Virus record (IMG/VR): IMGVR_UViG_3300032242_003148
Location: 64,001-128,000 of that record
DNA: 64,000 bases
Origin: a virus
Strand: one strand, 5' to 3'
The notes below the pieces were generated by a model, which worked only from the letters and a program-made list of their open reading frames with translations, searched no databases and was not told the origin of the DNA. A program made the position numbers and the translations under genes. This document shows, in pieces, positions 33,371 through 64,000 of this stretch (position 1 is the first letter of the stretch; each line of letters opens with the position of its first letter).

Positions 33371-33580
33371 TTAGTTTAAATTAATTAGTCCCAATTGTCT
33401 AGCTACATCGTTAAAATTGTTGTCTTCTCCCTTTGTGTATCTGACCCAGGCTTTCCCGTTTCCTATCATTCTATAGATCACATTTGGTGATCCGTCGTCT
33501 GAGTAGATTAGTAGTCCTGTGGCTTTGTCGGTATCTAATAATATTGGTTCTCTAAAGTCTCCTGTTACTACAACTTTCAT
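33371..33580 (-). CDS. Hypothetical protein
   Basis: 69 aa, TAATG-coupled to the upstream gene. Confidence 0.65.
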   Translation of the reverse strand: MKVVVTGDFREPILLDTDKATGLLIYSDDGSPNVIYRMIGNGKAWVRYTKGEDNNFNDVARQLGLINLN

Positions 33581-33831
33581 TAAATTCCTAGGTTTTGTTT
33601 GATTGATTGTAGTTCTTGTTGAATTTTTTCTTGCTCCATCAGCTTGGATAAACTGGATAATTCTTCATTACCTAAATTATCTTGGGCTGTGGGTGCCGGG
33701 ATATCTAATTTCTTGAATACCTCGGCAGAGCCTGGGTATTCGTTGGCTCTTTTCCAGAGTTGGCTTGCCTCTTTTTGAGACAAACCAAACTCTGTTGCAA
33801 AGCTTAGAAATCCTGTTTCAAATGTATCCAT
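33580..33831 (-). CDS. Small leader-family protein
   Basis: MDTFETGFLSFATEFGLS...WKRA. Confidence 0.7.
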   Translation of the reverse strand: MDTFETGFLSFATEFGLSQKEASQLWKRANEYPGSAEVFKKLDIPAPTAQDNLGNEELSSLSKLMEQEKIQQELQSIKQNLGI

Positions 33832-42020: not shown

Positions 42021-42926
42021 TTACTTAGCAGCTTCGGTCTTGAGGCGCTCGAGAACAATGTTAGCTACTGACTCAGCCAGCTTTGTTTGAAACTCAACTG
42101 ACTCAGCGGCCTGCTTCTCTTGAGCTTCCTTGCTGAGAACAGACTCAGCAAACTGAGAAAGTTCTGCAACCTTTGCCTTTAGTGCTTCGTTCTCCTGGGC
42201 GGCTTCTTCAAAAGCGGCCTGCTTAACAATCTCCTCGAAATAAGCTGCACCTGCGGCCTCTGCCTGCTTTTCTGTATCTGCAACCTTTTCTGTTTCTAAT
42301 TCTTGCGCGGCTTGAGCGATGAGCATGTCAAGATCACGGCGACCAGCTTCCTTCATAAGAGTAGCTTCGTCAGCAACTGTCTCAGACGCAGTCTTTAAAA
42401 GGGCTGCGCAGAATTGGCGACCAAGTTCATAGGAAGCAACCTTGCTGGCGAGTTCAGAAACTTCATCAGAGGCTTTCTTTGCTTCAGCGGCAGGCTCTGC
42501 ACTATCTGAGCTAGGCTTTTGATCACCTGTGGTCTGGGGGGTATTCTTATCAGCACCAACTTCGTTCTTGTTAGTGGTCTCGTGTTCATCCTTAACTGAC
42601 TCAGGCTTGTCTGTGGCTGGTTCGCCAGTAACTGCGTCTTGAGCGTCAGCATGCTTGCGGATGATGTCTAAAATTTCGTTACCAAGAGTTTCTGCTGTTT
42701 TAGCTGCAGGCTCTGCGGAATCCTTGGAGGGGGCTTGATGATAGCTCTGAGCGAGGTTATCAGCACCAACGTTGTTCTTATTGGTGGTCTCGTGCTCTTC
42801 TTTAACAGCTTCAGGCTTCTGGGAAGCGGGTTCACCAGTGACTGACTTCTGTGCCTCTTCGGCTTGCTTCTTAACCAGCGAGTGAAGCTGATTTAATACT
42901 TCGGCGTGTTTTGTTAATTTGCCCAT
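42021..42926 (-). CDS. Scaffolding / prohead core protein
   Basis: Acidic E/A/K-rich, 15 K-x-A tripeptides, AGGAG RBS, internal duplication. Confidence 0.7.
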   Translation of the reverse strand: MGKLTKHAEVLNQLHSLVKKQAEEAQKSVTGEPASQKPEAVKEEHETTNKNNVGADNLAQSYHQAPSKDSAEPAAKTAETLGNEILDIIRKHADAQDAVTGEPATDKPESVKDEHETTNKNEVGADKNTPQTTGDQKPSSDSAEPAAEAKKASDEVSELASKVASYELGRQFCAALLKTASETVADEATLMKEAGRRDLDMLIAQAAQELETEKVADTEKQAEAAGAAYFEEIVKQAAFEEAAQENEALKAKVAELSQFAESVLSKEAQEKQAAESVEFQTKLAESVANIVLERLKTEAAK

Positions 42927-42988: not shown

Positions 42989-43957
42989 TTAATCTTTACT
43001 TGCTCTGCCTGCTGCGATTCCTGTTCCACCAACGGCTGCGGCACCTAGACCTAGCGAGATTCCTTTGTGCTTACTAGCGAGTTCTTTTGCATCATCTTTG
43101 AACCCCTTTAGCGCAGTCTTACCTCTGGTGAGTACGTTTGTTACAGCTTCACCTGCAGCATTAGCGAGTCCTGCTTCTTTAACAATAGCAAGAGTCTGAG
43201 CATCAGAGAGACCGTATTCACGTGCGCGCTCTACAATACCTTCGTAGTATGCTGCGGTCTTTTCTTCTTTTTCAGCCTTGGCTTTACAAGCCGCGCAGGT
43301 TCCACCACAGTCGCAAGCTTTTTCTTCCTTTTCAGCCTTTTTCTCTTCAGCTACGGGAGCCTTGTTCTCACGGATCTTCTTTAAATCGTCAGCATCAATT
43401 TTACCATTGTGATTAACATCTAACTTTTTCTGTCCACCAATTAATTCACTCTGCTTGAGCTGATTGAATGTTGTGGTAAAAGCTGTGTCATAAAGTTCAA
43501 CAGCCTGCTTGAGACCTAAACCACGACCCAGAGCCTGCTCTAAGAATCCCTCAACATAGTTAGCGGATTTAATAAAATTAATTGCGCTCTGTTTGGCTAA
43601 AGCGGCCTCATCAGCTCCTGGCTGAGGGGCTAATTGCTCTGCCACATCAGGGTGCTGTGAAAGCTGCTGCTCAATCCCGGCGGCAACCCCAGGAATCTGC
43701 TCAGCTTCTTCACCATGTTCTGCCCCGCCACCATGACCATGAGTAACTTCAGCAATAAGCTGTTCTAGCTCCTCAGGAGAAAGTTGTGAAAGAAGCTTTT
43801 CAATTTCTTCTTCATGCGGAGTTTCAGAAGCTTCATGTTCAGGTGTGCCCTCTGGGGCTCCACCGCCATGCTGAGGAAGAAGTGCTTCAATTTGCTCTTC
43901 GTTCATTCCGGCTTCATTCGCGGCTTTGATAAAGCCAGTTAAAAAATGTTTATTCAT
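42989..43957 (-). CDS. Prohead core / internal head protein with three leader-type motifs
   Basis: FLTGFIKAANEAGM, YVEGFLEQALGRGL, YYEGIVERAREYGLS; DVNHNGKIDADD; CDCGGTCAAC. Confidence 0.65.
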   Translation of the reverse strand: MNKHFLTGFIKAANEAGMNEEQIEALLPQHGGGAPEGTPEHEASETPHEEEIEKLLSQLSPEELEQLIAEVTHGHGGGAEHGEEAEQIPGVAAGIEQQLSQHPDVAEQLAPQPGADEAALAKQSAINFIKSANYVEGFLEQALGRGLGLKQAVELYDTAFTTTFNQLKQSELIGGQKKLDVNHNGKIDADDLKKIRENKAPVAEEKKAEKEEKACDCGGTCAACKAKAEKEEKTAAYYEGIVERAREYGLSDAQTLAIVKEAGLANAAGEAVTNVLTRGKTALKGFKDDAKELASKHKGISLGLGAAAVGGTGIAAGRASKD

Positions 43958-44019: not shown

Positions 44020-45450
44020 TTAACGATTCTGGATCAGAGCGTTTAAAATAGTTTGATCGTCTAATTTACCGCTCTCATCCATATATCTCAGAGCCGCTAA
44101 TTTATAGCTCAAATATTGTTGAGCTAATTCATCTGCAGCTGCATCTTTTTCGATCTCTTTCTTGTTAGGGGAAGCTTTTAAATCGCCAGGAATTCTCTTG
44201 ATGATTGTAATGCGCATAACCCTACCATGAGCAGGCTGATCAAATAAAGAATGCCCTTCAAACAGACGACTGACAAGTCCTTTTATTTCCTTGGGAATTA
44301 TTCCTAAGTCTGAAGGATCAAATTTTTCATTGTTAACAGCTCCCGCCTCTGAGTCTTCGTCCTCTTCCATATGAGAGAATCCAGAAGGTAAACGCTTCTT
44401 CATCTTATCAATAATCTTTTCATCTTTTAATTTATCTCCGAAAAGATATTTAACAAAGTCTGCTGGAGAAAAAACAATACCATGATCAGCTAGGGCCTTT
44501 AATAGCTTGCTAGGATCTTGTTTGCGGAGCTCATCAATTGTTTCATCTGAAATACCATCAGCATGGTTAATCTTTGATGCTTCATGAGCAACATATTTCT
44601 CAGTAGAATCTTTGGGTCCCTTTGTTGCTATTCCCTCAAGATGCTTCTCCATTTCAGCTAACTTACCAACAAGTGCACGCTTATCGCTCGCCTTTTTAGA
44701 AATAAGAAAGTCGTTAGCCTCTGAAGGAGCTCTAAAGTCAGAATAAATTTGAAGATAGTCTGATGTAAGTTTAGGTGCGTATTCAGAAGCTAACTTAAGA
44801 GACATTCCGATTCTATCAGCAGGACGCCCAACAATAGATAACTCAAACCAATGAGGGTCTACGTTATCCATGCCACACATTTCTCCACGCTTGTTTAATT
44901 CACCTATCTGGCTAGGAACGTGTTCACAACGTCCACGATCATCTTTGGCTTCGTGTCCGCACCATGTACAAACATCGCTAGCAACCTTTGCGGCCATAGA
45001 AACGTTGATCTGCTTGCCTTCTGCTAACTTTTGAATTTCTTCTGCACACTTATCATTATCTAAACCAACGATAAGCTCTATTCTCTTCATCTCAGGATTG
45101 TACGCCGCGGCTTTGATATTTCCGTACTTAGGATCATGTGGTTTGTTCTTGTGGTGACGGTTTAATGCCCTGCCATCATACTTACCATCTTTACCCTTAG
45201 AACCTGACTTAACGAATGTCTTATAGTGCTCTAAACATTCAGCTTCTTTAAAAAGATCACCATTGCGGTTCTGGCCAATACCCTCATAAGCGCCAAGAGC
45301 AATAACATGCACGTCTGTTTGATTTGCTGTTTTTTCAACACGCAGCTCATCCTGCACAGCGGCTAACTTCTTCAAGTCAGCTGGTTCATTAACTATGTTT
45401 ACAGGAGGAACATCGTAGTTCCAATCTGAGGTAGAATTAAATTTAATCAT
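44020..45450 (-). CDS. Prohead (maturation) protease
   Basis: NRNGDLF, HH.N, VSM (catalytic Ser candidate), CxxC..C.H insert, FELSIVGRPAD: HK97/herpes-type prohead protease pattern. Confidence 0.8.
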   Translation of the reverse strand: MIKFNSTSDWNYDVPPVNIVNEPADLKKLAAVQDELRVEKTANQTDVHVIALGAYEGIGQNRNGDLFKEAECLEHYKTFVKSGSKGKDGKYDGRALNRHHKNKPHDPKYGNIKAAAYNPEMKRIELIVGLDNDKCAEEIQKLAEGKQINVSMAAKVASDVCTWCGHEAKDDRGRCEHVPSQIGELNKRGEMCGMDNVDPHWFELSIVGRPADRIGMSLKLASEYAPKLTSDYLQIYSDFRAPSEANDFLISKKASDKRALVGKLAEMEKHLEGIATKGPKDSTEKYVAHEASKINHADGISDETIDELRKQDPSKLLKALADHGIVFSPADFVKYLFGDKLKDEKIIDKMKKRLPSGFSHMEEDEDSEAGAVNNEKFDPSDLGIIPKEIKGLVSRLFEGHSLFDQPAHGRVMRITIIKRIPGDLKASPNKKEIEKDAAADELAQQYLSYKLAALRYMDESGKLDDQTILNALIQNR

Positions 45451-46740: not shown

Positions 46741-47301
46741 TTAGCTGTTTAAAAGATATTTATCTGCTTGTAGGGCACTACTAAGTCTCTCCACATTTCT
46801 GGGATCATTTAATTTTTGAAAGTTGGTTACAGTTTTTTGCTTGGCCTCATAGGCGGGAACTCCTGCAAGCAATCCTCCTCCTATAGCTCCGGCTAAACCT
46901 AAGCCTTTTGGAAGTCTAGAACGAAGGGCATTTAAAATAGCTGATCTACCTGGTCCCTTTAATGCAGAACCTGCTAGATGCCCCGCAGCCCCGCCCACAA
47001 AAGCCCCGCCAACAGCCTTGCCTAACCCAGCGCTAATTCCTTGCTGTTGTGGATTTTCTCCTAAGGTGGAATTGCGGGTGTTTAAAATAGCTTGATTGTA
47101 CTGTGCTGATGTTTGTCCTGTTGGGTCGTTGTAGCCCGGAGGAACGCCAGCTTCGCGTAGAGCTATGCGGATTCTAGCGATATCCTCGTCACTTAAATCG
47201 TCTGTATATGCTTTTTTAATTAGCCCAAGTATCTCGTCTTCTGGTAAGCCTGAAATATTTGCGGCCTTTATAAAGCCAGTCATGAAGTTATTAGTATTCA
47301 T
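46741..47301 (-). CDS. Leader-family protein with glycine-zipper cargo (start reassigned to ATG 47301)
   Basis: MNTNNFMTGFIKAANISGL...IKKA followed by GxxxG arrays. Confidence 0.7.
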   Translation of the reverse strand: MNTNNFMTGFIKAANISGLPEDEILGLIKKAYTDDLSDEDIARIRIALREAGVPPGYNDPTGQTSAQYNQAILNTRNSTLGENPQQQGISAGLGKAVGGAFVGGAAGHLAGSALKGPGRSAILNALRSRLPKGLGLAGAIGGGLLAGVPAYEAKQKTVTNFQKLNDPRNVERLSSALQADKYLLNS

Positions 47302-47707
47302 TATATTGTTGTACTTGTTGCTGAGGTTGGGGGTTCTCACCACCGGCTAGTGCTGACCCAGCGGCGCCACCTAATCCAAAGCCTAGTGTTGAGCCTATTG
47401 CCTGCCCTGTTCTCATACCTGTTCCTGGGATGGGGGCTCTAAAAAATTTTAATAACTTAGTAGATAAACCTGCAGGTTCGGGGTGACCAGCTGCAAGAGC
47501 TGCGGCTCTACGAGTCTGTAATGTTTTACCAGCCATACGCAAAAGTGGACCTGTGGCTAATCGACTCAGTAATAAATCGCCACCTAGACCACCAATTATC
47601 GGAGCGAGTAGATTCAACCAGGCAGTTTTATCTAATCCGTGCTCAGCACACTTGTTCATATAGCCGCGAATAAATGCAGCCTTGATCTTAGGGTCTTCTA
47701 AGTTCAT
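47291..47707 (-). CDS. Leader-family protein with glycine-zipper cargo
   Basis: AFIRGYMNKCAEHGLDKTA|WLNLLAPIIGGLGG... Confidence 0.7.
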   Translation of the reverse strand: MNLEDPKIKAAFIRGYMNKCAEHGLDKTAWLNLLAPIIGGLGGDLLLSRLATGPLLRMAGKTLQTRRAAALAAGHPEPAGLSTKLLKFFRAPIPGTGMRTGQAIGSTLGFGLGGAAGSALAGGENPQPQQQVQQYNEY

Positions 47708-48088: not shown

Positions 48089-49504
48089 TTAAAACTTTAT
48101 ACCTTCTAGGTTACCACGTAAATAGCTATCAGACACGATTTTTCTTTTCATCATGTCCATATCTAGTTTGGTGAGTTGATCTGCGTCGTGAGGTGCAATG
48201 GCCTGAGAAGCTACCGCTTGGCGAAGCATAGCACGAAGAACTTCTTTCTCTTTAGATACTTGCGGAGAAAGTCTAAGAATCTGCTCATAAGCTTTTACAA
48301 CCTTTTGTGGATTAGCCCTTGAAAGAATAGGATCTGTGAGCATTAACTCTTGAAGGATTAGTTGCCTCTCCATGTTTTCCATGGTCATATTATGGGCATG
48401 GCTAGATCCTCCTGGCTTTTTGCCTCCTCTGCTGGATAACTCCTCATAGAGTCTATGCTCACCCATAGCCTTGCCGGCACCGACTAAATTAGCTAAAGAA
48501 AACAAGCTAAGTGGACTAGCCTCTTTCTTTAGGGCTGCCTTTTTTTCTATCCTCTCTAAAATAGGATCTCTGCTCTCAGCTGTTTTCGTCGGTTTATTTT
48601 TTTTTTTAGCTACCACAATAGGGGCCTCTTCGGCTTGCTTGGATAGTGTTCCATTACCGGCAACCAGCTTTCCGATTTCAGAATAATACTCTTTTTCAAA
48701 AGTATAGTCAGCTTCGGCAGTTTTTAAGTTACCCTCAGCCTCACCTAATGCTGCTGCGGCTTTCATAAAATCATCATACATACCTAGTTCTGCAACTGGG
48801 GAGAACATATTGTATTTGCTGTCGTGCACTCCACGCTCTTCTTCTATACCTGCAGTCTTATAGATTAGGTCTAGATAAGGAACTGACGCTTCGCCATGCT
48901 TGCTGAACACTTGAGATTCAAACTCCTCAAAAGATGTTCTATATCCTTCGTCACGGCGGAAATGAGCCGCCAGCTTTGAGAACTTTTTATTCAGATCTAA
49001 CTCTGCACCAACCTTTTCTGTTTTGCAGTTATCGAGATTCTGTTCTAAATCTCTTAAAAGCTTTGCGGCCTTGTCGAAAGCGCCTTTCATGGTTAAACCA
49101 TAAGAATCCTCTGTTGCGGTTGCTCCTGTGATTTCGAGATAAGCCTGCTTATATTTAGGGTTATTAAGGGCACGGTTAAAATTAAATACTTCATCATTTG
49201 ATTCAGAAGTAGGAAAGTGCTCAGAAATATACTCGCTGGCTGTTTTTTCTGTTTTGTCGAAAATGCTGGAAATTGTTCCAGGGATATCAGCAATCGCAAA
49301 CCCAGCAGAACGGTCTGACGCAGTTTTGAAGTGATTATAGTGGAGAGCAACATTCAGGGCCTCGCCAACACGATGGATATAATTAGGATTAAGATCCAGA
49401 TCAGAGGCCACTTTCTTAAGGGCATCAGTAGGATTTGTTCCACTGTTAACTTTCTGCACTACCTCGGCTAATGCAATTTTTACGAGAGAATTCGGTTGTT
49501 CCAT
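48089..49504 (-). CDS. Putative internal head/core protein
   Basis: 471 aa, helical, about 15 K-x-A sites. Confidence 0.55.
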   Translation of the reverse strand: MEQPNSLVKIALAEVVQKVNSGTNPTDALKKVASDLDLNPNYIHRVGEALNVALHYNHFKTASDRSAGFAIADIPGTISSIFDKTEKTASEYISEHFPTSESNDEVFNFNRALNNPKYKQAYLEITGATATEDSYGLTMKGAFDKAAKLLRDLEQNLDNCKTEKVGAELDLNKKFSKLAAHFRRDEGYRTSFEEFESQVFSKHGEASVPYLDLIYKTAGIEEERGVHDSKYNMFSPVAELGMYDDFMKAAAALGEAEGNLKTAEADYTFEKEYYSEIGKLVAGNGTLSKQAEEAPIVVAKKKNKPTKTAESRDPILERIEKKAALKKEASPLSLFSLANLVGAGKAMGEHRLYEELSSRGGKKPGGSSHAHNMTMENMERQLILQELMLTDPILSRANPQKVVKAYEQILRLSPQVSKEKEVLRAMLRQAVASQAIAPHDADQLTKLDMDMMKRKIVSDSYLRGNLEGIKF

Positions 49505-53896: not shown

Positions 53897-55759
53897 CTAT
53901 TCTTTGAAGTTACTATGCTCACCAAAACCAACGCCGTGAGCAAGCCCGGGAATAGGGCTTGGTCCCCTGATATCAGAAGTAGCGCCAGCGTTAACAGCAT
54001 TGCTAAATCTCTTTGCCAGGTTTGTGCTATACAATACATGCATAAAGTCATCTGCGTGCTCTGGTACGTCTAATAATCTTACCATATGGGGTTCAAAATG
54101 TGGAGGGTCGTCATGCACAACCACAGATTCTATACCATGCTCTGCCAAGTCTTGCATAACTGAAGATGTTACTCTAGTACCTATGGTATAATGTAACTCT
54201 GGTTTTTCCAAATACTTACCATAAGCTAAGTCTGATCTAACTGTTTTGCTACTTGCCCTGGGTACGTAATTTTTCTCTAGAGCTGAGTAAGAAACAATCT
54301 GGTCTGGTAGAAAATCGCCTAGTCCTTCGTTATCTGTTATCTTTACATGATCAATGGCAGATCTAGCAATAAGTTCAAAATTTCTTCTGTTAACCCCTAG
54401 GTTACCCTCATCAAAAGCCCGCTTCATAGCCTGCGCATAATAATTTCGACCCTCTCCAATTCCCTTGTATCTAACAACTTCACTAGGATCAATTAGCCCA
54501 GAGCTAAGCACATCTCCCTGCTCTACTTTATCACCAACCTTAACTTTAGGTTCTTGTCCGACACCTATATAGTATTCTGTATCTCCTATCTTTATAAAAT
54601 ATCCACCAGCTGCGGCGTGTTGAACGCTAGACACAACCCCATCTTCTTGAGCTAGTGGTGCTTTGTTTAAAAAAGTTTTTGGGATGTTAGCTAGTTGGTT
54701 AATCATTTTAAACCCTGACACGCCACCTAGAGAAGTAGCAGCTCCGCCGCCATGACGAAGTTTCATAGCATACTCTGTGAGGGGTTCACTAACTGCTGTA
54801 CCAGCAACCAGTCCAATATAACTATCAGGAGCGGCTAAACCTTTTTCTCTTCTCCCCACACACAGCTGACAAACTGCACCGAAGTGACTATTATTGCTGG
54901 CTCTGCACGTCATGGGGGAACGGATTAAAATTTTGTTAATATTTTGTTCCTTTAAGTCATTCAACATTTTTGCGGTGATCTCATTATTCCTTTTATACCC
55001 GCCAACAGGAGCAGCTAGAAAGGCCCCAACAGAATCTTTGTCTGTGGTGGGTACTGTAATCCCATTAGTAGTGCCGCAATCATGTTCTGTGATTTGTAAA
55101 TTCATCAAGGCTCTAGAAAACTGTTTGGAAGAATATCCTCCCTGAGCCACACCAACCTTTTTAACAACTTCACCAGAACGAGTACCAAAAGATGTCACAA
55201 GATACTCAGGAAGAGAAAGTCCTTCAGCAAAAGAGCTTTTAACAGGAATATCCATTTTAGGATTTCCTTCTGCATCCACAACAATCCCCTGTGTTGCTAT
55301 GGTAGAGCGATATTGTGCTGGTGATCCTCTAGAACCCGCCAAAATAATTTTAGCTAGTGACTTATTATTCTTAAGCCCCTCATCAAGAATGGTCTTGTTG
55401 GTCTCCTCCATCAAGGAGTTATATTTATCAAAAATTCTTTGATTTTTAACGCTTTCAGAATCTTTGGTTTTATGTACTTTCTCCTGAAACTCTTCGAATT
55501 TGTCGTAAAGCTCTTTTGTATTAATAGGAGAAACCAAATCTTTTAATGTAATAGATGTTCCTTGTCTAGTGGCAATCTCAAAACCTAAACGGGTAAGATC
55601 AGAGGCGATCTTGCTATAATTTTCTGGCTCTTGTTCTACTAGCTTACTAAACAGATTATTGATTCCTTTTTTATCAAGAACCTGACCATCTATCATGTGA
55701 TGTAAGTGTTTAGGAGTATACTCTTTCAGAAGTATACGTCCTACAGTAGTAACGGACAT
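53897..55759 (-). CDS. Phage RNA polymerase subunit, beta' C-terminal half
   Basis: GSRGS..Q, SFAEGLSLPEY, EHDCGT, IRSPMTC, VCQLC.G, IG..AG..VSEPLT, R.FELI.R motifs of RpoC. Confidence 0.92.
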   Translation of the reverse strand: MSVTTVGRILLKEYTPKHLHHMIDGQVLDKKGINNLFSKLVEQEPENYSKIASDLTRLGFEIATRQGTSITLKDLVSPINTKELYDKFEEFQEKVHKTKDSESVKNQRIFDKYNSLMEETNKTILDEGLKNNKSLAKIILAGSRGSPAQYRSTIATQGIVVDAEGNPKMDIPVKSSFAEGLSLPEYLVTSFGTRSGEVVKKVGVAQGGYSSKQFSRALMNLQITEHDCGTTNGITVPTTDKDSVGAFLAAPVGGYKRNNEITAKMLNDLKEQNINKILIRSPMTCRASNNSHFGAVCQLCVGRREKGLAAPDSYIGLVAGTAVSEPLTEYAMKLRHGGGAATSLGGVSGFKMINQLANIPKTFLNKAPLAQEDGVVSSVQHAAAGGYFIKIGDTEYYIGVGQEPKVKVGDKVEQGDVLSSGLIDPSEVVRYKGIGEGRNYYAQAMKRAFDEGNLGVNRRNFELIARSAIDHVKITDNEGLGDFLPDQIVSYSALEKNYVPRASSKTVRSDLAYGKYLEKPELHYTIGTRVTSSVMQDLAEHGIESVVVHDDPPHFEPHMVRLLDVPEHADDFMHVLYSTNLAKRFSNAVNAGATSDIRGPSPIPGLAHGVGFGEHSNFKE

Positions 55760-55760
55760 A

Positions 55761-56093
55761 TTATTCCCTGCGAGTTAACTTATCCAGAAGATCTTTAACT
55801 GGAGAAGATGCTTTTTTTGTATTTGGATTATCTAATTCATTCAACACATCCAAATCTTTAAATGCACCGGCCATTAAAGATCCCTCTAAATTTTGATGAG
55901 CTTTGTCCTGTTCTGCTGTTTCTAATTTAGAGGCCTCGTCCACAGATTCATCTGGATCATCATTAATCACACCAGCTGTTTGTGCGGCTTGGATATCTGC
56001 AAGCTTTTCACGAATATAACAAACATAGTCATAGTTAGGATCCTGGGGACCAAAACTGTCTAAATAGTTAGCGACTTTTTCTAATGATTCCAT
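55761..56093 (-). CDS. Acidic hypothetical protein (start reassigned to ATG 56093)
   Basis: MESLEKVA..., 110 aa; lies between the RNAP genes. Confidence 0.6.
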   Translation of the reverse strand: MESLEKVANYLDSFGPQDPNYDYVCYIREKLADIQAAQTAGVINDDPDESVDEASKLETAEQDKAHQNLEGSLMAGAFKDLDVLNELDNPNTKKASSPVKDLLDKLTRRE

Positions 56094-56097
56094 TTTA

Positions 56098-56697
56098 TTA
56101 TTGCCCCGGAGCTGCGCCCATAGGGGCAGAATAAATTCCACCCTGCCCCATTGCGCTCTGTTGGGCTTGCTCTTGTTGGGCTTGACTCTGTTCTTGCTCT
56201 TGTTGCTTTTGCAGGGCTTCCATTTTCTTATTGTGGGTATCTGCTAACTGCTTAACCTTTAACAAGCTATGCGTTGCTTTGCCTCCGCTAGAGAGATCTA
56301 GGAGTTCACGAACAGAGAGAGTTACTTTTGTATTATCCAAGCTATTTTCTGCATTAACATTCCCCTCTGCTGGAGCTGGCTGGGCTTGCTGCTGCTCTTG
56401 AGCTTGTGGCTGCTGTGCTCCTGCTTGAGGTGCCGCGCCCCCTTGCTGTCCAACTTGTTGAATTTGCTGCGCCAATTGTTGCATGGCCTGCATCTGTTGG
56501 TCTGGTGGTAGCTGCTGTAGCTGTTGAAGCGCAGGTGCAATTTGTTGCTGGGCATCTTGAGGGAGCTGTTGAATCATTCCCATTAGCTGCTGTTGAGCCT
56601 GTTGGAGCTGCGCCTGTTCTTGCTGGGGCTGAGGATTAGGGATAAAAGCCTGTTTTACAAGGCTATCATATGATTGGATAAGTTCGGCGATATTCAT
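56098..56697 (-). CDS. Glutamine-rich low-complexity protein
   Basis: LVKQA followed by Q/P/A tracts. Confidence 0.7.
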   Translation of the reverse strand: MNIAELIQSYDSLVKQAFIPNPQPQQEQAQLQQAQQQLMGMIQQLPQDAQQQIAPALQQLQQLPPDQQMQAMQQLAQQIQQVGQQGGAAPQAGAQQPQAQEQQQAQPAPAEGNVNAENSLDNTKVTLSVRELLDLSSGGKATHSLLKVKQLADTHNKKMEALQKQQEQEQSQAQQEQAQQSAMGQGGIYSAPMGAAPGQ

Positions 56698-56894
56698 TTT
56701 ATGTACTCCAGGTCTATTATTTGGTTTATAGTTTTTTTAAGCTCTGTTTTTAAAGTCTTTATTTTGCCCTCTTCATGAGTGCCCCTAAGCTCATGCTCAC
56801 CAGAGTCAAGCCTTCTGAACTCGTTTAAATATTTTTCGAGTTCTGCCAGCTTTTCTTCATCGGTTAGCTTGAACCAGATTTCTTCATCTATCAT
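56694..56894 (-). CDS. Hypothetical protein
   Basis: 66 aa, ATGA-coupled to the next gene. Confidence 0.6.
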   Translation of the reverse strand: MIDEEIWFKLTDEEKLAELEKYLNEFRRLDSGEHELRGTHEEGKIKTLKTELKKTINQIIDLEYIK

Positions 56895-56924
56895 TGTATG
56901 TGATACTTAAAGTTTAATAAAGCT

Positions 56925-59912
56925 TTAAGATATGTCAACATTATCTCCTATGTCCAGCTTTCCTGCCATAAAATCAGCAACTACTTGAGAGTCACTAGAG
57001 TAATGTATTGGTTTGTTGTGTTTATCCTCATAGCTAGCGGCAAACAATCCTACAGCTGCTTCGTTTGAAGGTGTATAGATAGGGCTGAACGTTCTGTGAT
57101 AAATAAGGTTTTTCTCCGGGAATAGCTTTTCTTTGACTTCCTCTTTAGCTGCATCACCGGCAGGTACTTGAACATTGAGCTGGTCTCCGTCGGAGTCTGC
57201 ACCATATCCTTTGAATACCAATGGGTTTAATTTAATAGAGAAGTCTTTGGGGTCAGGATTAGCCCTTAAGTAAAACCCTTGGAAGTTATATTTAGACAAC
57301 TGGGGATCACGAGTAACAATACCAGGACGATCTTTTAGCTCCTCTTGCAGGGCTAATGACGCTAGTGGGTGTTTGCTCTTAACATAGTCTCTGGCTTTGG
57401 TGGCGGGTACCCCTTGTCTCACTAGTCTGCGAATAATAAACGGAGTATAGATATTCCATAGAATAGTCTGAGGAATAGCTGCCTCATTCAACTGCAGATT
57501 TCCATCTGGTACAAGTACACCTCTTCCTACAAGATCAATTGGCTTGTTAACTACTTTGGCCTGGAACATAGAGCTCTTTGCGCTACCCCCTTGTGTGCCT
57601 AGCGTTGTGGCGAGCAGACCTTTGAAATGCTTTTCTTTGCTTCTTGTGCTGATTGGTTCGCCTAACCCATAGATGGCTCTAACTCCCTCGTATAACTTTT
57701 TACGAGCTTCACCTTTTAGCTCTTCAGGAGTGTGTTCGTCTATGCCTTTGAACGACCTGTTCACCAACATGAGATCTTTATATAATTCATTAACATCCGC
57801 GCTCATGATCTGATTACCCTGTGCGGTAATTGGTCGGTATTGCGCAGGTATAACAGGAACTTTAGATAGCAATAAATCTTTGGGGTGAAGATTCTCCCTC
57901 TTTAGCATTGTTAGGAAAGCTAATACTTTAACTGCAGAGTCTCTATCTGTTTTTCTGTTAGATTTAATATACCCTTTTAGCTCTGCTATCTTGTCATCTA
58001 ACTTAATACCTTTGAGTGCTTTTTCTAATTCGCCGTTAGATAACATTTCCTCAAACTTAGCTTTTGTTGTGCCTAATAGTTTACGCAACGGCTCTTCACT
58101 AATAGGATTAGGTACTTTCATTGCTAGCTCTATGTGATTGTAGTTATCTCCGTAAATACCTACATTAACAGGGTCAAAAAGCCCGCTATTCTCTGCAACT
58201 AATTCTCCGTTCTTAAGCTTGTATGTGAGCGGTTCATGAATTTCGCCGTGACTAAGCATCTCTATATCTTTGTCTGTTTGAGGAAGAATATTAAACTTTG
58301 TGCCCTCTTGATTAACATGCACACCAGATCCCTCTAGGTGAGAAATAAACTTATTAAATATAAACGGAACTTTCGGAGGTGGCGGAGTATAACCTAGCTT
58401 GATTGCGTTCCAGAATTCATCGTTCTTTGTGCTTCTAACCACAGCCACATCTTTTAAAACTTCCTTGGCGTCATTAGACAGAGCTACCGTGGTTGCAAGG
58501 TTTCCTAAGCGCTTGCTCTTTTCAACAGTGCCGGCCTTAGAGGGCTGCATGTTAATATCGTATGTAGTACCTGCGGATCTAGATGATATTTTGTCTTCTG
58601 CAATGTGATGTAATCTTGTGTAATATGACGGACCTGTGAAAACTTCTATGTGCTTGCCAGAGATAGGATCATAGAGTTTTTCGGTATCTTTGATCCCGTG
58701 TTTTTCTAATTCTTTGATTGTGTTCTCTACAACACTACCATTTGCAAAAGGAGTAGTTTTAATGTTGTGACCTAACTTCTGAGCAACTTTGCCCATAGCC
58801 ATTGTGGTGATAAGTCCAGGAGCAACGCGGCTAGTAACACTCATAGAGTTGAGCAGCACATCAATAGGTTTACCATCTTCTCCTTGAGGCATCTCGCTAT
58901 TGCTAACAATTCTAACCACACCTTTTGCGCCGAAAGGGTTAGAGAGTTTATCTCCCTGGGCCATTGTTCTTCTTGTCTTAATTGTAACAGTAATAAGTTT
59001 ACTAGTATGACTAACATCCACTACTTCACCATCATGCTCGTATTCCCAAGTATGTGTGATATCTGAGTAAGCATTTTTAAGTGCTCTAGAAAGTTTACCC
59101 AGTTGAATTTCTAATGACTTTAGCGTTTTAGGTTGATACGCAAGAATCAACGGATCTCCATGGCTAACAATGCTGCCTCTTTTAATTGTTCCAGAACTAT
59201 CTAACTTACTAAGCTGGTCGTTGAAATATTTGTTTGGGAACAATGAAACATATTTGTCTTTGTCTGTTTCTATTCCTCTAGCAATTTCTAATCTAACAGG
59301 CACAAGTTGCTCTGCTTCTAATTTTTGAGCGGCTGCTTCGCTAATAACAAGAGCATCTTCGAAATTATAAGAGCGATATGGCATCACGGCGGTTTTAAGA
59401 TTCATACCTAGTGCCATATTGCCATGAGCGTCAGAATAATTAGATGTGGCTAATAATCCCTCTTTTTTAACAGTGTCTCCTACTTTAACTGTAGGAATAT
59501 GATGCATATAACTTTCACGTCCCACCAGATAATGTTGATATAGTGGGTGCTCGTGGTCTTTACCAGAACTATCCTTAACCACAATCTTGTCAGGATCTAC
59601 CTTGGTTACTTTTCCATCTGAAAAACTGTGAAGGCTAACTAGTTTATGTCCGAACTCCTCTATAAAGCTCTTGTGATCCTGGCTCTCGCTAGACTGAACT
59701 AATGGAGCTTCTCTGTTAACCAGAGTCATAGCCTGAAGTGAGCTCTTATCACCGATTAATACACGGGCACCTGATACACTACTCAGGCTGGGAATAAGAT
59801 TAGTAACAGGGGAGAAGAAATCCGTGGTGCTCGGAATCTTATAATCTACTTTGGTTGACTTAGGGACTTTTTTGAGTTTTCCGTGGTCCAACACGAATTT
59901 GTACTCTTTCAT
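56925..59912 (-). CDS. Phage RNA polymerase subunit: beta C-terminal half fused to beta' N-terminal (catalytic) half
   Basis: RpoB motifs (QAM.L...EAPLV, YNFEDA.VISE, GDKL...GAKGVV, MP...DG.PID..LN, LHH..EDKI.SRS), then RpoC motifs (GLFDP, HIELA, VPVIP..YRP, K.ID..GRGV.VPD, RDPQL, GADSDGDQ). Confidence 0.93.
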   Translation of the reverse strand: MKEYKFVLDHGKLKKVPKSTKVDYKIPSTTDFFSPVTNLIPSLSSVSGARVLIGDKSSLQAMTLVNREAPLVQSSESQDHKSFIEEFGHKLVSLHSFSDGKVTKVDPDKIVVKDSSGKDHEHPLYQHYLVGRESYMHHIPTVKVGDTVKKEGLLATSNYSDAHGNMALGMNLKTAVMPYRSYNFEDALVISEAAAQKLEAEQLVPVRLEIARGIETDKDKYVSLFPNKYFNDQLSKLDSSGTIKRGSIVSHGDPLILAYQPKTLKSLEIQLGKLSRALKNAYSDITHTWEYEHDGEVVDVSHTSKLITVTIKTRRTMAQGDKLSNPFGAKGVVRIVSNSEMPQGEDGKPIDVLLNSMSVTSRVAPGLITTMAMGKVAQKLGHNIKTTPFANGSVVENTIKELEKHGIKDTEKLYDPISGKHIEVFTGPSYYTRLHHIAEDKISSRSAGTTYDINMQPSKAGTVEKSKRLGNLATTVALSNDAKEVLKDVAVVRSTKNDEFWNAIKLGYTPPPPKVPFIFNKFISHLEGSGVHVNQEGTKFNILPQTDKDIEMLSHGEIHEPLTYKLKNGELVAENSGLFDPVNVGIYGDNYNHIELAMKVPNPISEEPLRKLLGTTKAKFEEMLSNGELEKALKGIKLDDKIAELKGYIKSNRKTDRDSAVKVLAFLTMLKRENLHPKDLLLSKVPVIPAQYRPITAQGNQIMSADVNELYKDLMLVNRSFKGIDEHTPEELKGEARKKLYEGVRAIYGLGEPISTRSKEKHFKGLLATTLGTQGGSAKSSMFQAKVVNKPIDLVGRGVLVPDGNLQLNEAAIPQTILWNIYTPFIIRRLVRQGVPATKARDYVKSKHPLASLALQEELKDRPGIVTRDPQLSKYNFQGFYLRANPDPKDFSIKLNPLVFKGYGADSDGDQLNVQVPAGDAAKEEVKEKLFPEKNLIYHRTFSPIYTPSNEAAVGLFAASYEDKHNKPIHYSSDSQVVADFMAGKLDIGDNVDIS

Positions 59913-59965: not shown

Positions 59966-60397
59966 TTAATAGCTTATCTTGCCGCCCTTGAAATTAGGGT
60001 CTGGAACATAAGTATTATTAAGGTGCTGATTGTTTTGATGTCTGCTTTCAGCCAGGGAAGGACCACTAAAGAGATCAAGGCCTGTATTATGGGCGGCGCT
60101 ATTTAACATACCACCAACGTTAGTCTTAAAGTTTTGAAAACCAGTTCCGATAGCGTTACCAATATTATGTGCTGTGTTACCGAGTGCGTGACCCGCAGCC
60201 CCAATACCATTACCCACAGATTGCAGGCCTTTAGTTATGGTGTCGTCTTCACCTAAGGGCAAGTGGTTGTACTTGGATGCTGATATTTCTGAATTTAAGG
60301 GAATTGTGGCCTGCTTTAAAATCTCGATAGCTTCATTCTTGCTAACTCCATAGTCAGCTGCTCTTTTTAGGAATCCATTAATAAATGCTTCGTTCAT
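59966..60397 (-). CDS. Leader-family protein
   Basis: MNEAFINGFLKRAADYGVS...ILKQA followed by Gly/Asn-rich cargo. Confidence 0.8.
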   Translation of the reverse strand: MNEAFINGFLKRAADYGVSKNEAIEILKQATIPLNSEISASKYNHLPLGEDDTITKGLQSVGNGIGAAGHALGNTAHNIGNAIGTGFQNFKTNVGGMLNSAAHNTGLDLFSGPSLAESRHQNNQHLNNTYVPDPNFKGGKISY

Positions 60398-60756
60398 AAG
60401 TTTTTCTTTTTTTCTTCTTCTGTTTTTCGTTTCTGCTTTCTTTTTTCTCCAAGGTTTTCTCTAAGCACGTGATCAGCTTTATACTTACGACCAATGTGAT
60501 AACCGGTATATCCGGGAATAAGGAGCCCCTTACCAAGTCCATAAGGTGTGCGGTGTACTTCTTCAGCCTCATCTTCATCCATGTCATTATATCTACCAAT
60601 AAGTGCACCTATAGCAGAAGGAACTCCAAGATTACCAATATCATACATAGGTCCAATGATGGCCTGCTTCTCTAAAATCTCGATAGCTTCAGCTTCGCTA
60701 ACTCCATAGTCAGCTGCTCTTTTTACAAATCCATTAATAAATGCTTGTTCGCTCAT
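60394..60756 (-). CDS. Leader-family protein
   Basis: MSEQAFINGFVKRAADYGVS...LEKQA followed by hydrophobic cargo. Confidence 0.8.
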   Translation of the reverse strand: MSEQAFINGFVKRAADYGVSEAEAIEILEKQAIIGPMYDIGNLGVPSAIGALIGRYNDMDEDEAEEVHRTPYGLGKGLLIPGYTGYHIGRKYKADHVLRENLGEKRKQKRKTEEEKKKNL

Positions 60757-60830
60757 ATAGTTATTTGTTATTTCTGCTTTAGTACGTCTTCGTTCATATA
60801 GTTATTTCTATACCCTGCTCAGTGCTTTAT

Positions 60831-61304
60831 CTAGGGAGTGATATCTGTATTATGGGCGGCACTATTTAAAGCACCGCCGACATTATCGTTACGCTTTTGA
60901 AAATAATCTCCAACAGTGTTACCAATATTACGTGCTTTGTCAGCAACAAAGTTATTAATTTCACGCCCTACGGCTGGTATGGCGTGTGATGTGCCAGCTA
61001 AAGTGGCGCCTGCGCCCCACAGGGCTGGAATACCGGTGTTGCGGATTGATTGACCGACCGACGGTGGCGTCAATCCGCTAGTTAAAGGGCTAGCAACTCC
61101 ACGTTCAGCACCTAGACCAGCACGAAGGCTAGCGCCAAGGCCAGGGAATGCTTTGTTTGCTATGTTACCCACTCTACCTAAACCGCCTAATATAGGACCG
61201 ATGGGGGCTGCGGACTTTTCATTCAAAATACTAATTGCTTCATTCTCACTAACTCCATAGTCCGCTGCTCTTTTTAAGAATCCGTTTATAAAGGCTTCGT
61301 TCAT
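60831..61304 (-). CDS. Leader-family protein
   Basis: MNEAFINGFLKRAADYGVS...NEKSA followed by Gly/Ala-rich cargo. Confidence 0.8.
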   Translation of the reverse strand: MNEAFINGFLKRAADYGVSENEAISILNEKSAAPIGPILGGLGRVGNIANKAFPGLGASLRAGLGAERGVASPLTSGLTPPSVGQSIRNTGIPALWGAGATLAGTSHAIPAVGREINNFVADKARNIGNTVGDYFQKRNDNVGGALNSAAHNTDITP

Positions 61305-61335
61305 AAGTTTTAAGTTTTAAGTTTTTCTGATTTTA

Positions 61336-61662
61336 TTAACTTTCCCCCTCTTCGTCAAGATTTTCTGGATTATCAACAAATCTCAAACCACATCTCCAGA
61401 GCACATGGGCAAGGTCATCGCTAATCTCGTCCACCACATCATTGTCCAACTCCCAAATAGCGCAATGTATTAGTTCATCTAATAGGGTAGCCAACATCTC
61501 CTTTGGTGTTTGGTTAGGGTCAACAACTACACTCTTACCCTTTGTTGCAGGGTTGTCTGTTCTGCCCCTATTCTGAGTTTCAGTTATCAGATTAGGGGTT
61601 AATGAAAATTTATACCTCCTACCTCTCACGGTAATAGAGTGAATGTTCTCTAGCTGCTTCAT
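61336..61662 (-). CDS. Zincin-like (ImmA/IrrE-type) small metallopeptidase homolog with DExxH
   Basis: G.TD...K..VVDP.....EMLATLLDELIHC...(E)..VD.I pattern. Confidence 0.55.
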   Translation of the reverse strand: MKQLENIHSITVRGRRYKFSLTPNLITETQNRGRTDNPATKGKSVVVDPNQTPKEMLATLLDELIHCAIWELDNDVVDEISDDLAHVLWRCGLRFVDNPENLDEEGES

Positions 61663-61773: not shown

Positions 61774-63207
61774 TTGACATACACAAATCCCACAGCTAGA
61801 TTCCCATTCATGATTCTCTTACCCGAACACCCATTAAGAAGAGCTAACACCCAATACAAGCCTCCTGTTCCATCCATAGAACTAATAGAGCATTGGCTAG
61901 AGAACGAATGGAACCAGATAATGGATAGGCCGGTAGCTAACCGTGTTGTGAGGGACAAACTAGACATAGACATCACAAGCATATGGGATATCAGAGCCCA
62001 TTGGGGAGTTCTCACTGCAGAAGAAGCCATTAAGATTACTAGGGTACTAGAGAAAGAAACCTCTGGTGTGGGTGCGTCAGGTAACGAGGGATTCATTTAT
62101 TATCCAGGCTGGGGTATGAAGCGTAAACATGAATTCTCTCGATGGTGCTCTATTACTGCACTACTAGGTGAGAATTGGGACTCTCGTGGTTGCCTACTAA
62201 ACAGCATGCTCTCATACACCAAAGGAGTTAGTGGCTTGAACATTAAAAACAGAATTTTAAACCCATATACTACTCGTGTGGAAACTAAAAATTGGTTAAC
62301 CGCCAGAGAGAAGAGCATAAACAAGTTATTCAAGAGAGGCCTAGTTGCTCGTACATTTGTTATTCATGAGAATGATTGCTTTGTGCCATCCTTTGGGGAA
62401 GATTGGGTAGACGTTGTGAGGGACGGCTTCAAGCTAACCAGAAAAAGACTAATGGCTCTAAAGAGATCTGGTGTGATAGAGGACTACATGTACAGCCATG
62501 AATCTAGCTGCACCTCTATAGAATCCAGACTTATACATCCACATACCCACGTTATCTTCTGGGCAGGCAAGAACTGGAGTGAGTCTGCTATGAGAATTGC
62601 TCTAAAGCTAAACAAAGAACTCACCATGGGCTATCATGATGACGAGAGGACTCTTATCTCCTGGAGGTCTCAAAGCGAGGACTTTAAGAACTACGTGGGC
62701 TATATCAATGGTGTGTATGACTTCGGAAATAGGCTCTCTAAGGAATGGACAAAAGAGAAGAGTCGTGAGTTGAACATAGCTACTCGTGAGCTGGCTAGTG
62801 GTGTGAACTACTTATTCTTGAAAATACACAAAACCGGCTGTGGTGGTCTAAAGAAGAATACCGGCTTGCAAAAGAGCAAAGGAGAGTTTAAAATCGATCA
62901 AACTAAATCTTGCGAAGAAGAAATAATTTATGAACAAACAAGCACTCTCAGAGGGAATAATGTGGGAATTGGGCAGGAACAACATATCCAAGGAAGCCTC
63001 TCTAGGAATACTAGATACACTGATGTCAACGGAGAGCGTGGTTTTATCTCTAGAGAAGAAAGCTCAACTAATACGCAGAGTAGAGGAGGAGAGCCTAGAG
63101 TTCAGAAGGGGACTAAAAGAGGCCATGCTAGAGAGGGGAGTGGACGAGGATGTAGTAGACGGCTTTCTAAAGCAGGGAGAGGTAGAGTTCGAGAACATCA
63201 TGAATAG
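61774..63207 (+). CDS. HUH-endonuclease (rolling-circle Rep-like) protein; start uncertain (TTG 61774 or ATG 61810)
   Basis: YMYSHE...IHPHTHVIFW (motif II context) and downstream YVGY tyrosines. Confidence 0.55.
   Translation: MTYTNPTARFPFMILLPEHPLRRANTQYKPPVPSIELIEHWLENEWNQIMDRPVANRVVRDKLDIDITSIWDIRAHWGVLTAEEAIKITRVLEKETSGVGASGNEGFIYYPGWGMKRKHEFSRWCSITALLGENWDSRGCLLNSMLSYTKGVSGLNIKNRILNPYTTRVETKNWLTAREKSINKLFKRGLVARTFVIHENDCFVPSFGEDWVDVVRDGFKLTRKRLMALKRSGVIEDYMYSHESSCTSIESRLIHPHTHVIFWAGKNWSESAMRIALKLNKELTMGYHDDERTLISWRSQSEDFKNYVGYINGVYDFGNRLSKEWTKEKSRELNIATRELASGVNYLFLKIHKTGCGGLKKNTGLQKSKGEFKIDQTKSCEEEIIYEQTSTLRGNNVGIGQEQHIQGSLSRNTRYTDVNGERGFISREESSTNTQSRGGEPRVQKGTKRGHAREGSGRGCSRRLSKAGRGRVREHHE
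62866..62894 (+). promoter_or_regulatory. Promoter TTGCAA-N17-TAAAAT
   Basis: 35 nt before ATG 62930; same hexamers as the sheath promoter. Confidence 0.65.
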
Positions 63208-63964
63208 CCTGCTAGAGAAGAACGCAGGGGGATTTGGCAGCATTCTTGAGGGTGGAGCAAACCTATTCAAAGGGATAAAAAATTTAGGTGGTGAAGTAGG
63301 AAATACCTGGAGAGAGGCAGGAGATGGTGGCGGAATGTGGCAGGGCATTAAAAATATATTTCATGGTAGAGAGGGCAGTGGACCAGGTTCTTCTGGGGCT
63401 AGAATTACTCCTGAGCCAGGAGCAGCATCCAGCGTAGCTGGCAGCTCAGCAAAAACTCAAGCAGGGGTTACAAATCCCGGATTTATGGGTCCTGGTTTCT
63501 GGGGGCGTAGGTTCGGTAAAGGGGGTAAAGGAGCTCTCTATGGTGGAGCAATAGGAAGTTTTGTTCCTGGCGTGGGCACAATAGGCGGAGCAGCCCTAGG
63601 AGGAGCAGCGGGATTATTAGGCAGGGCAGGACTAGCAGGTGTAGGAGCAACGACCTTAGGTGGTGGAGCACTATTAGGGCATAGCATGCTTGGTGGGGAT
63701 AGCGACAAATATGGTTTAGAGCCATGGAAGCAAAATAATCTTATTCCCGGAATATCCAATAATATGCTAGGCACAGGGGCTGGAGCAATAGGTGCACTTA
63801 TGTTGAGCAAAGAATTAGGTCTACCTCTGGGCAACGCTATACCTCTTCTGCTGGGTGGATATCTTGGGCACAAATATCTTCCAGGTATTATGGGAGGCAA
63901 CAATCCACTTTCCCAGTATGGTTATGGCTGGAGCAGGGATGCAGCGCCTTCTCAACTCCAATAA
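62930..63964 (+). CDS. Leader-type protein with long glycine-zipper cargo
   Basis: Acidic N-terminal third ending LLEKNA, then GALYGGAIGS.VPGVGT.GGAALGGAAG arrays. Confidence 0.75.
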   Translation: MNKQALSEGIMWELGRNNISKEASLGILDTLMSTESVVLSLEKKAQLIRRVEEESLEFRRGLKEAMLERGVDEDVVDGFLKQGEVEFENIMNSLLEKNAGGFGSILEGGANLFKGIKNLGGEVGNTWREAGDGGGMWQGIKNIFHGREGSGPGSSGARITPEPGAASSVAGSSAKTQAGVTNPGFMGPGFWGRRFGKGGKGALYGGAIGSFVPGVGTIGGAALGGAAGLLGRAGLAGVGATTLGGGALLGHSMLGGDSDKYGLEPWKQNNLIPGISNNMLGTGAGAIGALMLSKELGLPLGNAIPLLLGGYLGHKYLPGIMGGNNPLSQYGYGWSRDAAPSQLQ

Positions 63965-63965
63965 A

Positions 63966-64000
63966 ATGAATTTAGACTTGGCTGCTTTTAGCTTAGGGTT
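63966..64000 (+). CDS. Partial ORF, probably another leader-family protein
   Basis: MNLDLAAFSLG... begins 1 nt after the previous stop; truncated by the window edge. Confidence 0.45.
   Translation, partial: MNLDLAAFSLG

Follow-up and report, generated by a model that had tools for sequence, protein, structure and literature searches.

What do three small adjacent genes on the minus strand, at 59966-61304 of a 64,000-nucleotide stretch of virus DNA, have in common with otherwise unrelated genes elsewhere in the same phage? The stretch (hereafter the window) comprises bases 64001-128000 of one 165.6 kb phage contig (IMG/VR record IMGVR_UViG_3300032242_003148). A first-pass annotation had proposed that at least eight open reading frames (ORFs) carry a short leader which closes on a K-x-A motif and loads membrane-active or host-manipulating peptides into the phage head. 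We find that a shared module is present in these ORFs far above chance expectation. It is 26-30 residues long and occurs in nine copies in seven ORFs: 59966, 60394, 60831, 46741, 47291, 33580 and 42989 (three copies). Two further proposed carriers, 62930 and 63966, gave zero matches with either of the profiles described below. We favor, with a probability of about one in two, the reading that the module acts as a prohead-core docking tag, by analogy a functional counterpart of phage T4's capsid-targeting sequence.

The strict core of the module, [FY]xxG[FYI]xKxA, turns up five times when the 165.6 kb genome is translated in six frames, against a mean of 0.6 and a maximum of 3 in residue shuffles. 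A profile of eight copies, searched across the genome, found zero further copies. In a leave-one-group-out test, where a profile made from the remaining copies must recover the omitted group, the trio 59966/60394/60831 was recovered at E values of 3e-8 to 3e-6, the first copy of 42989 at 1e-3 and 46741 at 3e-3; 33580 was top-ranked, yet only at E 0.9, and 47291 was missed. A larger profile, built from 285 copies in 191 mostly other metagenomic proteins, finds 9/9 window copies: the trio at 1e-13 to 2e-15, the copies of 42989 at 7e-8, 8e-8 and 2e-13, 33580 at 3e-6, 46741 at 8e-5 and 47291, the weakest, at 0.013. The logo of the 285 copies reads [YF]-I-x-G-F-[VIL]-K-R-A-x-E-Y-G-[LFV]-S-x-x-[EQ]-A-x-x-L-L-K-x-A, and in N-terminal copies K7, R8 and K24 are conserved at 97%, 74% and 76%.

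AlphaFold, run on 60394 with a 52-sequence alignment, confidently predicts that the module folds as a helix-turn-helix, with one helix at residues 3-16, a four-residue turn and a second helix at residues 21-33. The predicted local distance difference test (pLDDT) is 92-98 over residues 1-30 and about 55-65 downstream. The abrupt switch that the first-pass annotation noted past the closing K-x-A is borne out by this drop in pLDDT, by column conservation, which falls right past the closing alanine across the 285 copies, and by the Pro/Gly/Ala-rich sequence that follows. In the trio the switch extends to the DNA: the leaders share about 85-90% identity over about 85 nt, beyond which they part abruptly.

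Within the trio (all minus strand), the module occupies residues 1-30 of the 143-residue product of 59966-60397 (60308-60397; profile E 2e-15 and 1.8e-17), residues 1-32 of the 120-residue product of 60394-60756 (60661-60756; profile matches and AlphaFold) and residues 1-32 of the 157-residue product of 60831-61304 (61209-61304; profile matches). What follows it, here called the cargo, is Gly/Asn-rich in 59966, with a C-terminal part resembling that of 60831 (BLASTP E 5e-21), carries a 'PGYTGY' motif and a basic tail in 60394, and is Gly/Ala/Pro-rich in 60831. The other single-copy carriers are also on the minus strand. In 46741-47301 (186 residues, read from the ATG at 47301 in preference to the GTG at 47343) the module spans residues 1-31 (47209-47301) of a protein with C-terminal Gly/Ala-zipper segments, and orthologues in loci L002, L003 and L004 retain it. 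A shortened form at about residues 8-29 of 47291-47707 (138 residues; 47621-47686), with a Gly-rich hydrophobic segment directly after it, is likewise retained in the orthologues of L002 and L004. In 33580-33831 (83 residues) the module covers residues 1-29 (33745-33831). This gene sits just downstream of a 1148-residue ORF (33831-37277), which we read as sheath-like from its position and its homology to a virion protein of Salmonella phage Arash, without a family match; the small ORF on its other side is taken to be tube-like. The 33580 gene is kept at the same place in L004, L005, L040, L042 and L043.

The three remaining copies lie in 42989-43957 (minus strand), which encodes a protein of 322 residues that we call the hub. 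They were placed at 43877-43957, 43478-43573 and 43169-43264 by the profiles, by an alignment of 37 homologues (A4) and by AlphaFold, which models three helix-turn-helix units in this protein. Hub proteins have 200-470 residues and two or three copies. In the alignment, an optional first copy is followed by an acidic stretch, an L-S-P-E-E-L-E-Q-L motif, a variant copy, an EF-hand-like D-x-D/N-x-D/N-G-K-I-D loop, a third copy of the form E-K-T-A-A-Y-Y-E-G-V-L-E-R-A-R-E-Y-G and a C-terminal Gly/Ala-rich segment. The hub gene lies between the protease and scaffold genes in the window, in L040, in L042 (from genome G007), in L043 (from G008) and in genomes G006-G009. Foldseek returned zero matches for the 42989 model in BFVD at E<=0.001. 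The hub may be a receptor for the tagged proteins. At residues ~172-190 of 42989, the EF-hand-like calcium-binding loop reads D-V-N-H-N-G-K-I-D-A-D-D-L and is kept in most homologues; a Cys-rich insert, C-D-C-G-G-T-C-A-A-C, is otherwise present only in the closest relative.

The genes around the hub form a head module on the minus strand, in the order 51531, 48089, 47704, 47291, 46741, 45450, 44020, 42989, 42021, 41477, 40839 and 39861, which is syntenic with gp218-gp226 of Arash. Split RNA polymerase genes lie upstream of it, and the trio adjoins them. These multisubunit polymerase genes (53897-59912), contiguous with the head module, include a beta-C/beta'-N fusion. The closest isolates are Arash and Vibrio phages D69, D181 and D148, to whose capsid proteins that of the window is 27-30% identical (about 30% for the RNA polymerase). 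In metagenomes the capsid protein has 261 homologous clusters (E<=1e-10), and the longest of their contigs reach 293 kb; the clade is thus a large one, of uncultivated phages of 165-290 kb.

The first-pass annotation had spoken of an N-terminal leader. This describes 92 of the 116 single-copy proteins, where the module stands at the extreme N-terminus, typically as M-N-T-Q-Q-A-Y-I-N-G-F; in most of the remaining ones a Met directly precedes the module, a hint that these genes were called too long. It does not describe the 155 of 285 copies that are internal or C-terminal, including those that make up the repeats of the hub. The cargos of the N-terminally tagged proteins have a median of 111 residues, with 9.8% Gly, 11.3% Ala and 8.1% Pro. 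Calling them membrane-active fits only a subset, since Gly/Ala-zipper patterns occur in 34 of the 92 and a classic hydrophobic (transmembrane) span in 2 of the 92. A Pfam scan of 147 module proteins found almost no cargo with a domain, no family shared among cargos, and zero MuF or portal domains. The tag is nonetheless fused to DUF6321 in four loci (L034, L036 and L039 by Pfam; L038 by homology to its own genome's DUF6321-bearing ORF), and an ATP-grasp protein of L037 has the module C-terminally. DUF6321 is also found untagged. The module thus joins Gly-rich tails, DUF6321 and an enzyme alike, and the idea that it is distinct and portable stands.

Where do tagged genes lie in related phages? 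Three relatives (G006, G007 and G008) have genomes of 190-204 kb that are complete or nearly so, and the capsid proteins of G007 and G008 match that of the window at E 1e-182 or better. Each of the three carries 8-12 module copies, confined to three places. One is the head module, another the gene that follows the homologue of the 1148-residue protein (an 80-residue product in the 33580 position), and the third a single array of 4-8 consecutive tagged genes. Relatives differ in the size of the array, from 0 to 8. After the arrays come a gene homologous to the N-terminal 200 residues of the 1115-residue protein 26155-29502 and then collagen-like tail-fibre genes, and the arrays are flanked by large proteins with KTSC, MazG, DUF6321 and DUF5661 domains. 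Domains of this type mark polyvalent proteins, which Iyer and colleagues predicted to be packaged and injected (PMC5512222). In every genome examined, module copies are restricted to late or virion gene regions, and the replication and nucleotide-metabolism regions of three complete genomes hold zero copies.

One member of the trio has counterparts in the head module of relatives: the gene between the homologues of 41477 and 40839 in L040 and L042 (L040:10001-10573 and L042:10328-10744, by alignment) resembles 60394 in both tag and cargo (P-G-Y-T-G-Y), and in L040, L042 and L043 counterparts of 60394 have the scaffold-region genes on one side and the capsid gene on the other. G002 is a close relative, with a protease about 88% identical and a record 93% complete. 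There the slot of the trio, from the RNA polymerase gene to the homologue of 61336, holds one unrelated 263-residue ORF (L044:5338-6126) between conserved flanking genes, and the record contains zero arrays of tagged genes. The tagged genes are therefore accessory and mobile, and the hub is constant.

Some features of the arrays and of the contig are recorded here in their own right. The short proteins that close the arrays (L033:11404-12123, L037:11843-13378, L038:13739-14368 and L032:12229-12870), homologous to the N-terminal ~200 residues of 26155-29502, end in a DUF5661-type segment with an H-E-x-x-H motif and are possibly small metallopeptidases. An unexpected passenger, a full-length DUF1501 protein (L032:8152-9507; E 2e-131), lies among the tagged genes of an array, on a viral contig of 57 kb. 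The window's own contig is incomplete, since ORFs run past both ends: a DUF6321-type ORF (genome 165310-165606, minus strand) is truncated at one and an 870-residue repeat protein at the other. The missing part could hold an array of tagged genes.

When a profile of the module was run against 1.84 billion representative proteins, 531 clusters matched at E<=1e-3 and 51 at E<=1e-10; the matches P0011, P0050 and P0075 were set aside as false positives driven by repeats (T2SSK repeats, insect-allergen repeats and fn3 domains). One 2.5 kb contig of a metagenome-assembled genome was the sole match in 185,579 prokaryote genomes (one per species), and tblastn of 60394 against 50,697 phage records gave zero matches at E<=1. 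With this distribution the module looks native to free, uncultivated phages. Scans of the seven module proteins against Pfam, PHROGs and NCBIfam gave sub-threshold noise only, the ESM Atlas returned a single unnamed cluster at 0.77, which is uninformative, and a search of the literature by motif strings turned up nothing of relevance. The libraries and literature searched contain neither the module nor the hub architecture nor the K-x-A-[S/A] statistics presented below; leader-directed loading of head proteins is, as a kind of system, already known.

The K-x-A triplet that closes the module recurs in the head-core proteins. Measured against residue shuffles of the same protein, it is enriched in the scaffold-like protein 42021-42926 (minus strand; acidic, Ala/Glu/Lys-rich; 15 observed and 5.5 expected, p<0.002), whose homologues retain 12-13 sites, and in the head-core protein 48089-49504 (minus strand; homologue of Arash gp220, phmmer 1.3e-5; 16 and 4.7), whose homologues in L042 and L043 have 16 sites each. 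The same holds for the prohead maturation protease 44020-45450 (minus strand; 13 and 4.8), which has a long K-x-A-rich C-terminal extension, and for 41477 (5 and 1.5). The protease is a homologue of Arash gp222, matches phrog_18299 only (2.9e-8) and found no match by phmmer among PDB sequences. Pooled over the head-core proteins of three distant phages, K-x-A counts reach 56 against 21.5 expected in the window (z 8), 32 against 11.1 in Arash (z 6.8) and 35 against 11.3 in D69 (z 8), and K-x-A-[S/A] rises to z 9-12. K-x-A is not enriched in the RNA polymerase, the tail-region proteins of the window or the whole capsid protein. The control motifs A-x-K, K-x-x-A, K-A, R-x-A, E-x-A, K-x-S, K-x-G, K-x-L, K-x-E and Q-x-A are all at expectation; we rejected on the first five of these the idea that the enrichment is a by-product of Lys/Ala-rich helices. 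Three known codes were likewise tried in the core proteins and set aside: T4-type [LI]-x-E (z -0.9), phiKZ-type [ASG]-x-E (47 observed, 46.8 expected) and herpes-type [VLI]-x-A (at expectation).

The surroundings of the triplet are also patterned. Over 123 K-x-A sites, P5 is hydrophobic in 67%, and P1' is Ser in 30%, Ala in 21% and Glu in 16%. The major capsid protein, 39861-40817 (minus strand; tblastn to the Arash major capsid protein 2e-25), has K-x-A-[A/S] at residues 24-27 (K-x-A at 40740-40748). This site is kept in 120 of 120 clade homologues while its middle and flanking residues vary, and the aligned position reads V-K-E-A-G in Arash and T-K-E-A-G in D69, a pattern of the kind that would be expected for a maturation-protease site. 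K-x-A, and especially K-x-A-[S/A], is thus a good candidate for the prohead protease site. The tag itself contains two such triplets, F-V-K-R-A in helix 1 and L-L-K-x-A at the end; both fit the hydrophobic P5 context, and Ala or Ser at P1' is commoner at the first. Outside the window, a 350-residue ORF (genome 56950-57998, minus strand) has five K-x-A-[S/A] sites, the sole such density outside the head module, and so may be a further protease substrate.

How might these elements work together? The reality of the module, its predicted fold, its distribution and gene context, the portability and turnover of the tagged genes and the K-x-A statistics support the docking-tag reading. The tag would bind a common partner in the assembling head, be it the hub copies, the scaffold or the capsid interior, and tagged proteins would thereby be co-assembled into the prohead, much as T4 internal proteins are through their capsid-targeting sequence. 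The maturation protease would cut core proteins at Phi-x-K-x-A followed by S, A or E; with two candidate cuts inside the tag, in helix 1 (V-K-R-A) and at the end (L-K-x-A), cutting would free the cargo, which would stay in the head or leave with the DNA at ejection. Binding, packaging, cleavage and ejection of the tagged proteins are all steps that we infer. The fuller scheme, in which the uncatalogued tag is the address label of a capsid-loading system, the hub with its tandem copies the receptor, a protease of new K-x-A-[S/A] specificity the agent that frees the cargo and the hundreds of unrelated tagged proteins a catalogue of virion-delivered effectors, we put forward tentatively, as somewhat less likely than not.

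Several observations weigh against a docking tag. With more than half of the copies internal or C-terminal, a simple cleavable leader fails to cover the whole family, and S or A follows the closing K-x-A of the tag in a minority only, unlike at the core-protein sites. The 33580 copy stands in the tail module and the arrays abut tail-fibre genes. By tblastn, none of the isolates in the 50,697 phage records carries the module, and the incompleteness of the contig makes the copy counts lower bounds. The relevant virion proteomics come from Arash alone (PMC10585845) and concern divergent analogues of the module proteins: Arash and D69 have only divergent half-modules, at E 0.002-0.03 against a handful of proteins, a marginal homology. 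As a hint in favor of the docking tag, mass spectrometry of Arash virions detected several positional counterparts, namely gp221, gp223, gp224 and gp213 (PMC10585845). Of these, gp223 is the counterpart of the hub, with three divergent half-modules of the form G-[VI]-x-F-x-E-A-V-E-L-V-K-E-A, gp221 has a helical N-terminus followed by M-E-K-S-A and a Gly-rich segment, and gp224 and gp213 are Gly-rich. This detection is weak evidence because the preparation, of 116 proteins, also held many enzymes, including ribonucleotide reductases and primase, and the 100% coverage of gp221 and gp223 is not suggestive of N-terminal loss (PMC10585845). RNA polymerase subunits gave the top spectral counts in these virion preparations (PMC10585845), which for the homologues gp206 and gp216 hints at a virion-packaged polymerase.

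Other explanations have to be set beside the docking tag. The module could serve assembly only, as an oligomerisation unit of scaffold-like core proteins that are later degraded and expelled. Neither cargo nor injection would come into it, and the small tagged proteins would be no more than minor or accessory parts of the scaffold. That would suit a module that is the repeat unit of a conserved protein beside the protease and scaffold, and cargos that are mostly short, of low complexity and without a recognisable domain; K-x-A sites, moreover, flank the module and cut through it, as befits proteins destined for destruction. Arrays of 4-8 hypervariable genes far from the head module, fusions to DUF6321 or to an ATP-grasp enzyme, and wholesale replacement between close relatives are all unexpected under this explanation, and we consider it unlikely. 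The same arrays bring to mind counter-defence loci, which are typically hypervariable clusters of small genes. The tag might accordingly bind an intracellular host or phage factor (RNA polymerase, the membrane or a defence protein), its bearers being a host-takeover or anti-defence family that lies by chance among late genes. The window trio does adjoin RNA polymerase genes, and the 50,697 phage records searched hold zero tagged proteins. In relatives, however, the arrays adjoin tail fibres rather than RNA polymerase genes, counterparts of 60394 lie inside the head module, the multi-copy hub keeps its synteny with protease and scaffold throughout the genomes checked, and the absence of copies from replication and nucleotide-metabolism regions also speaks against a role outside the virion, which we regard as distinctly improbable.

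Could the module instead load proteins into the tail lumen or a baseplate complex? The hub and the majority of the conserved single copies lie in the head module, from the portal-side genes to the capsid gene, and the K-x-A code ties the module to the substrates of the prohead protease. A conserved gene of the 33580 type between the gene read as sheath-like and the tube-like gene, and arrays that end at the 26155-29502 N-terminal homologue and tail-fibre genes, point toward the tail, and still leave this explanation very improbable in our estimate. Lastly, the predicted fold might suggest a minimal nucleic-acid-binding helix-turn-helix, and on inspection of the logo, Ala 5, Gly 9, the hydrophobic residue at 10 and Ser 11 resemble the classic signature of such domains. 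The second helix, which would have to be the recognition helix, is acidic, with E or Q at positions 18 and 21, and ends L-L-K-x-A; the AlphaFold model lacks a third helix to complete a DNA-binding domain, and Pfam and NCBIfam gave zero matches to helix-turn-helix families. We give DNA binding scarcely any credence.

Further features near the trio lie apart from these questions. The ORF 62930-63964 (plus strand; 344 residues, Gly-rich), not a confirmed carrier of the module, has six K-x-A triplets where 1.4 are expected. It opens a block of Gly-rich genes without the module, on the plus strand from 62930-64000 of the window to genome position 131136 (window-equivalent 67136), formed by 62930, 63966, 64721, 65137 and 66591 and conserved in G002; several of its proteins have a short N-terminal helical segment that ends in K-x-A (L-E-K-S-A, A-K-E-A) and then turn Gly-rich. 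A scan for promoter and terminator signals around the trio gave counts at chance level. A sigma-70-like site (TTGACG, 17 nt, TAAAAT) lies at 61330-61358 (minus strand), just upstream of the start of 60831, and carries no weight because sites of this kind are no commoner in the region than chance predicts.

If the module is a loading signal, a single short profile would pick out the proteins that an entire clade of uncultivated phages delivers with its virions. These would make up at least 531 protein clusters, of which hardly any has a known function. Effectors of the first minutes of infection, anti-restriction and host-takeover proteins among them, can otherwise be spotted from sequence only with great difficulty. 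The module would also be a structurally different tag for bringing proteins of choice into phage capsids, beside the T4 leader and the P22 scaffold domain. The K-x-A-[S/A] statistics, for their part, point to a prohead protease specificity unlike the Glu-directed type of T4 and phiKZ, a question for which Arash and Vibrio phages D69, D148 and D181 are cultivable relatives.

Several known systems resemble parts of this picture. In polyvalent proteins and MuF-linked toxins, as here, variable effector domains lie among the late genes, and their packaging and injection are predicted (PMC5512222); the DUF6321, KTSC, MazG and DUF5661 domains of polyvalent proteins stand beside or are fused with tagged genes. 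The phage studied here differs in having no MuF or portal fusion and mostly small single-domain or disordered tagged cargos in place of long multidomain chains. Phage prohead proteases share the assemblin fold. Herpesvirus assemblin sites ([V/L/I]-x-A, then S) are like the candidate site in their P1 Ala, P1' Ser/Ala and hydrophobic upstream residue, whereas here Lys at P3 defines the candidate site and [VLI]-x-A is not enriched.

The prohead protease of phages of the SPN3US/phiKZ type removes N-terminal propeptides of 20-254 residues at a short [A/S/G]-x-E motif (PMC10052503). The present phage is likewise large, with many head proteins and multisubunit RNA polymerase genes adjoining the head genes, a type of polymerase that phiKZ-type phages package; it differs in that [A/S/G]-x-E is at expectation and in that its capsid protein and protease are related to those of Arash, not detectably to those of phiKZ. 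Matches to the capsid protein among phage isolates are only Arash and three Vibrio phages. We know of no report of phiKZ-type propeptides forming one portable conserved module. The scaffolding protein of P22 binds coat through a C-terminal helix-turn-helix which, fused to foreign cargo, loads P22 particles. That domain is also a small helix-turn-helix with conserved basic residues (here predicted); it is single and C-terminal in the scaffold, whereas the present module, to which we found no sequence relation, recurs within a separate hub and leads many cargos N-terminally.

The T4 capsid-targeting sequence, which directs proteins into the scaffolding core (PMC3012670), had been named as a precedent by the first-pass annotation and is in our view the right one. 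The T4 leader can bring in foreign proteins as well (Mullaney and Black 1996, as cited in PMC10052503). It has about 10 residues, compared with 26-30 in a predicted helix-turn-helix here, and there is no sequence likeness between the two. The T4 site [LI]-x-E is not enriched here and the tag logo has no such ending, the candidate site being K-x-A. The tag unit is here also an internal repeat of a conserved hub; to our knowledge no hub-like repeat arrangement of the leader exists in T4. In both phages, a short N-terminal leader is the sole conserved part of unrelated small proteins, whose genes occupy variable (hyperplastic) loci, in the context of a head core with a maturation protease and a scaffold.

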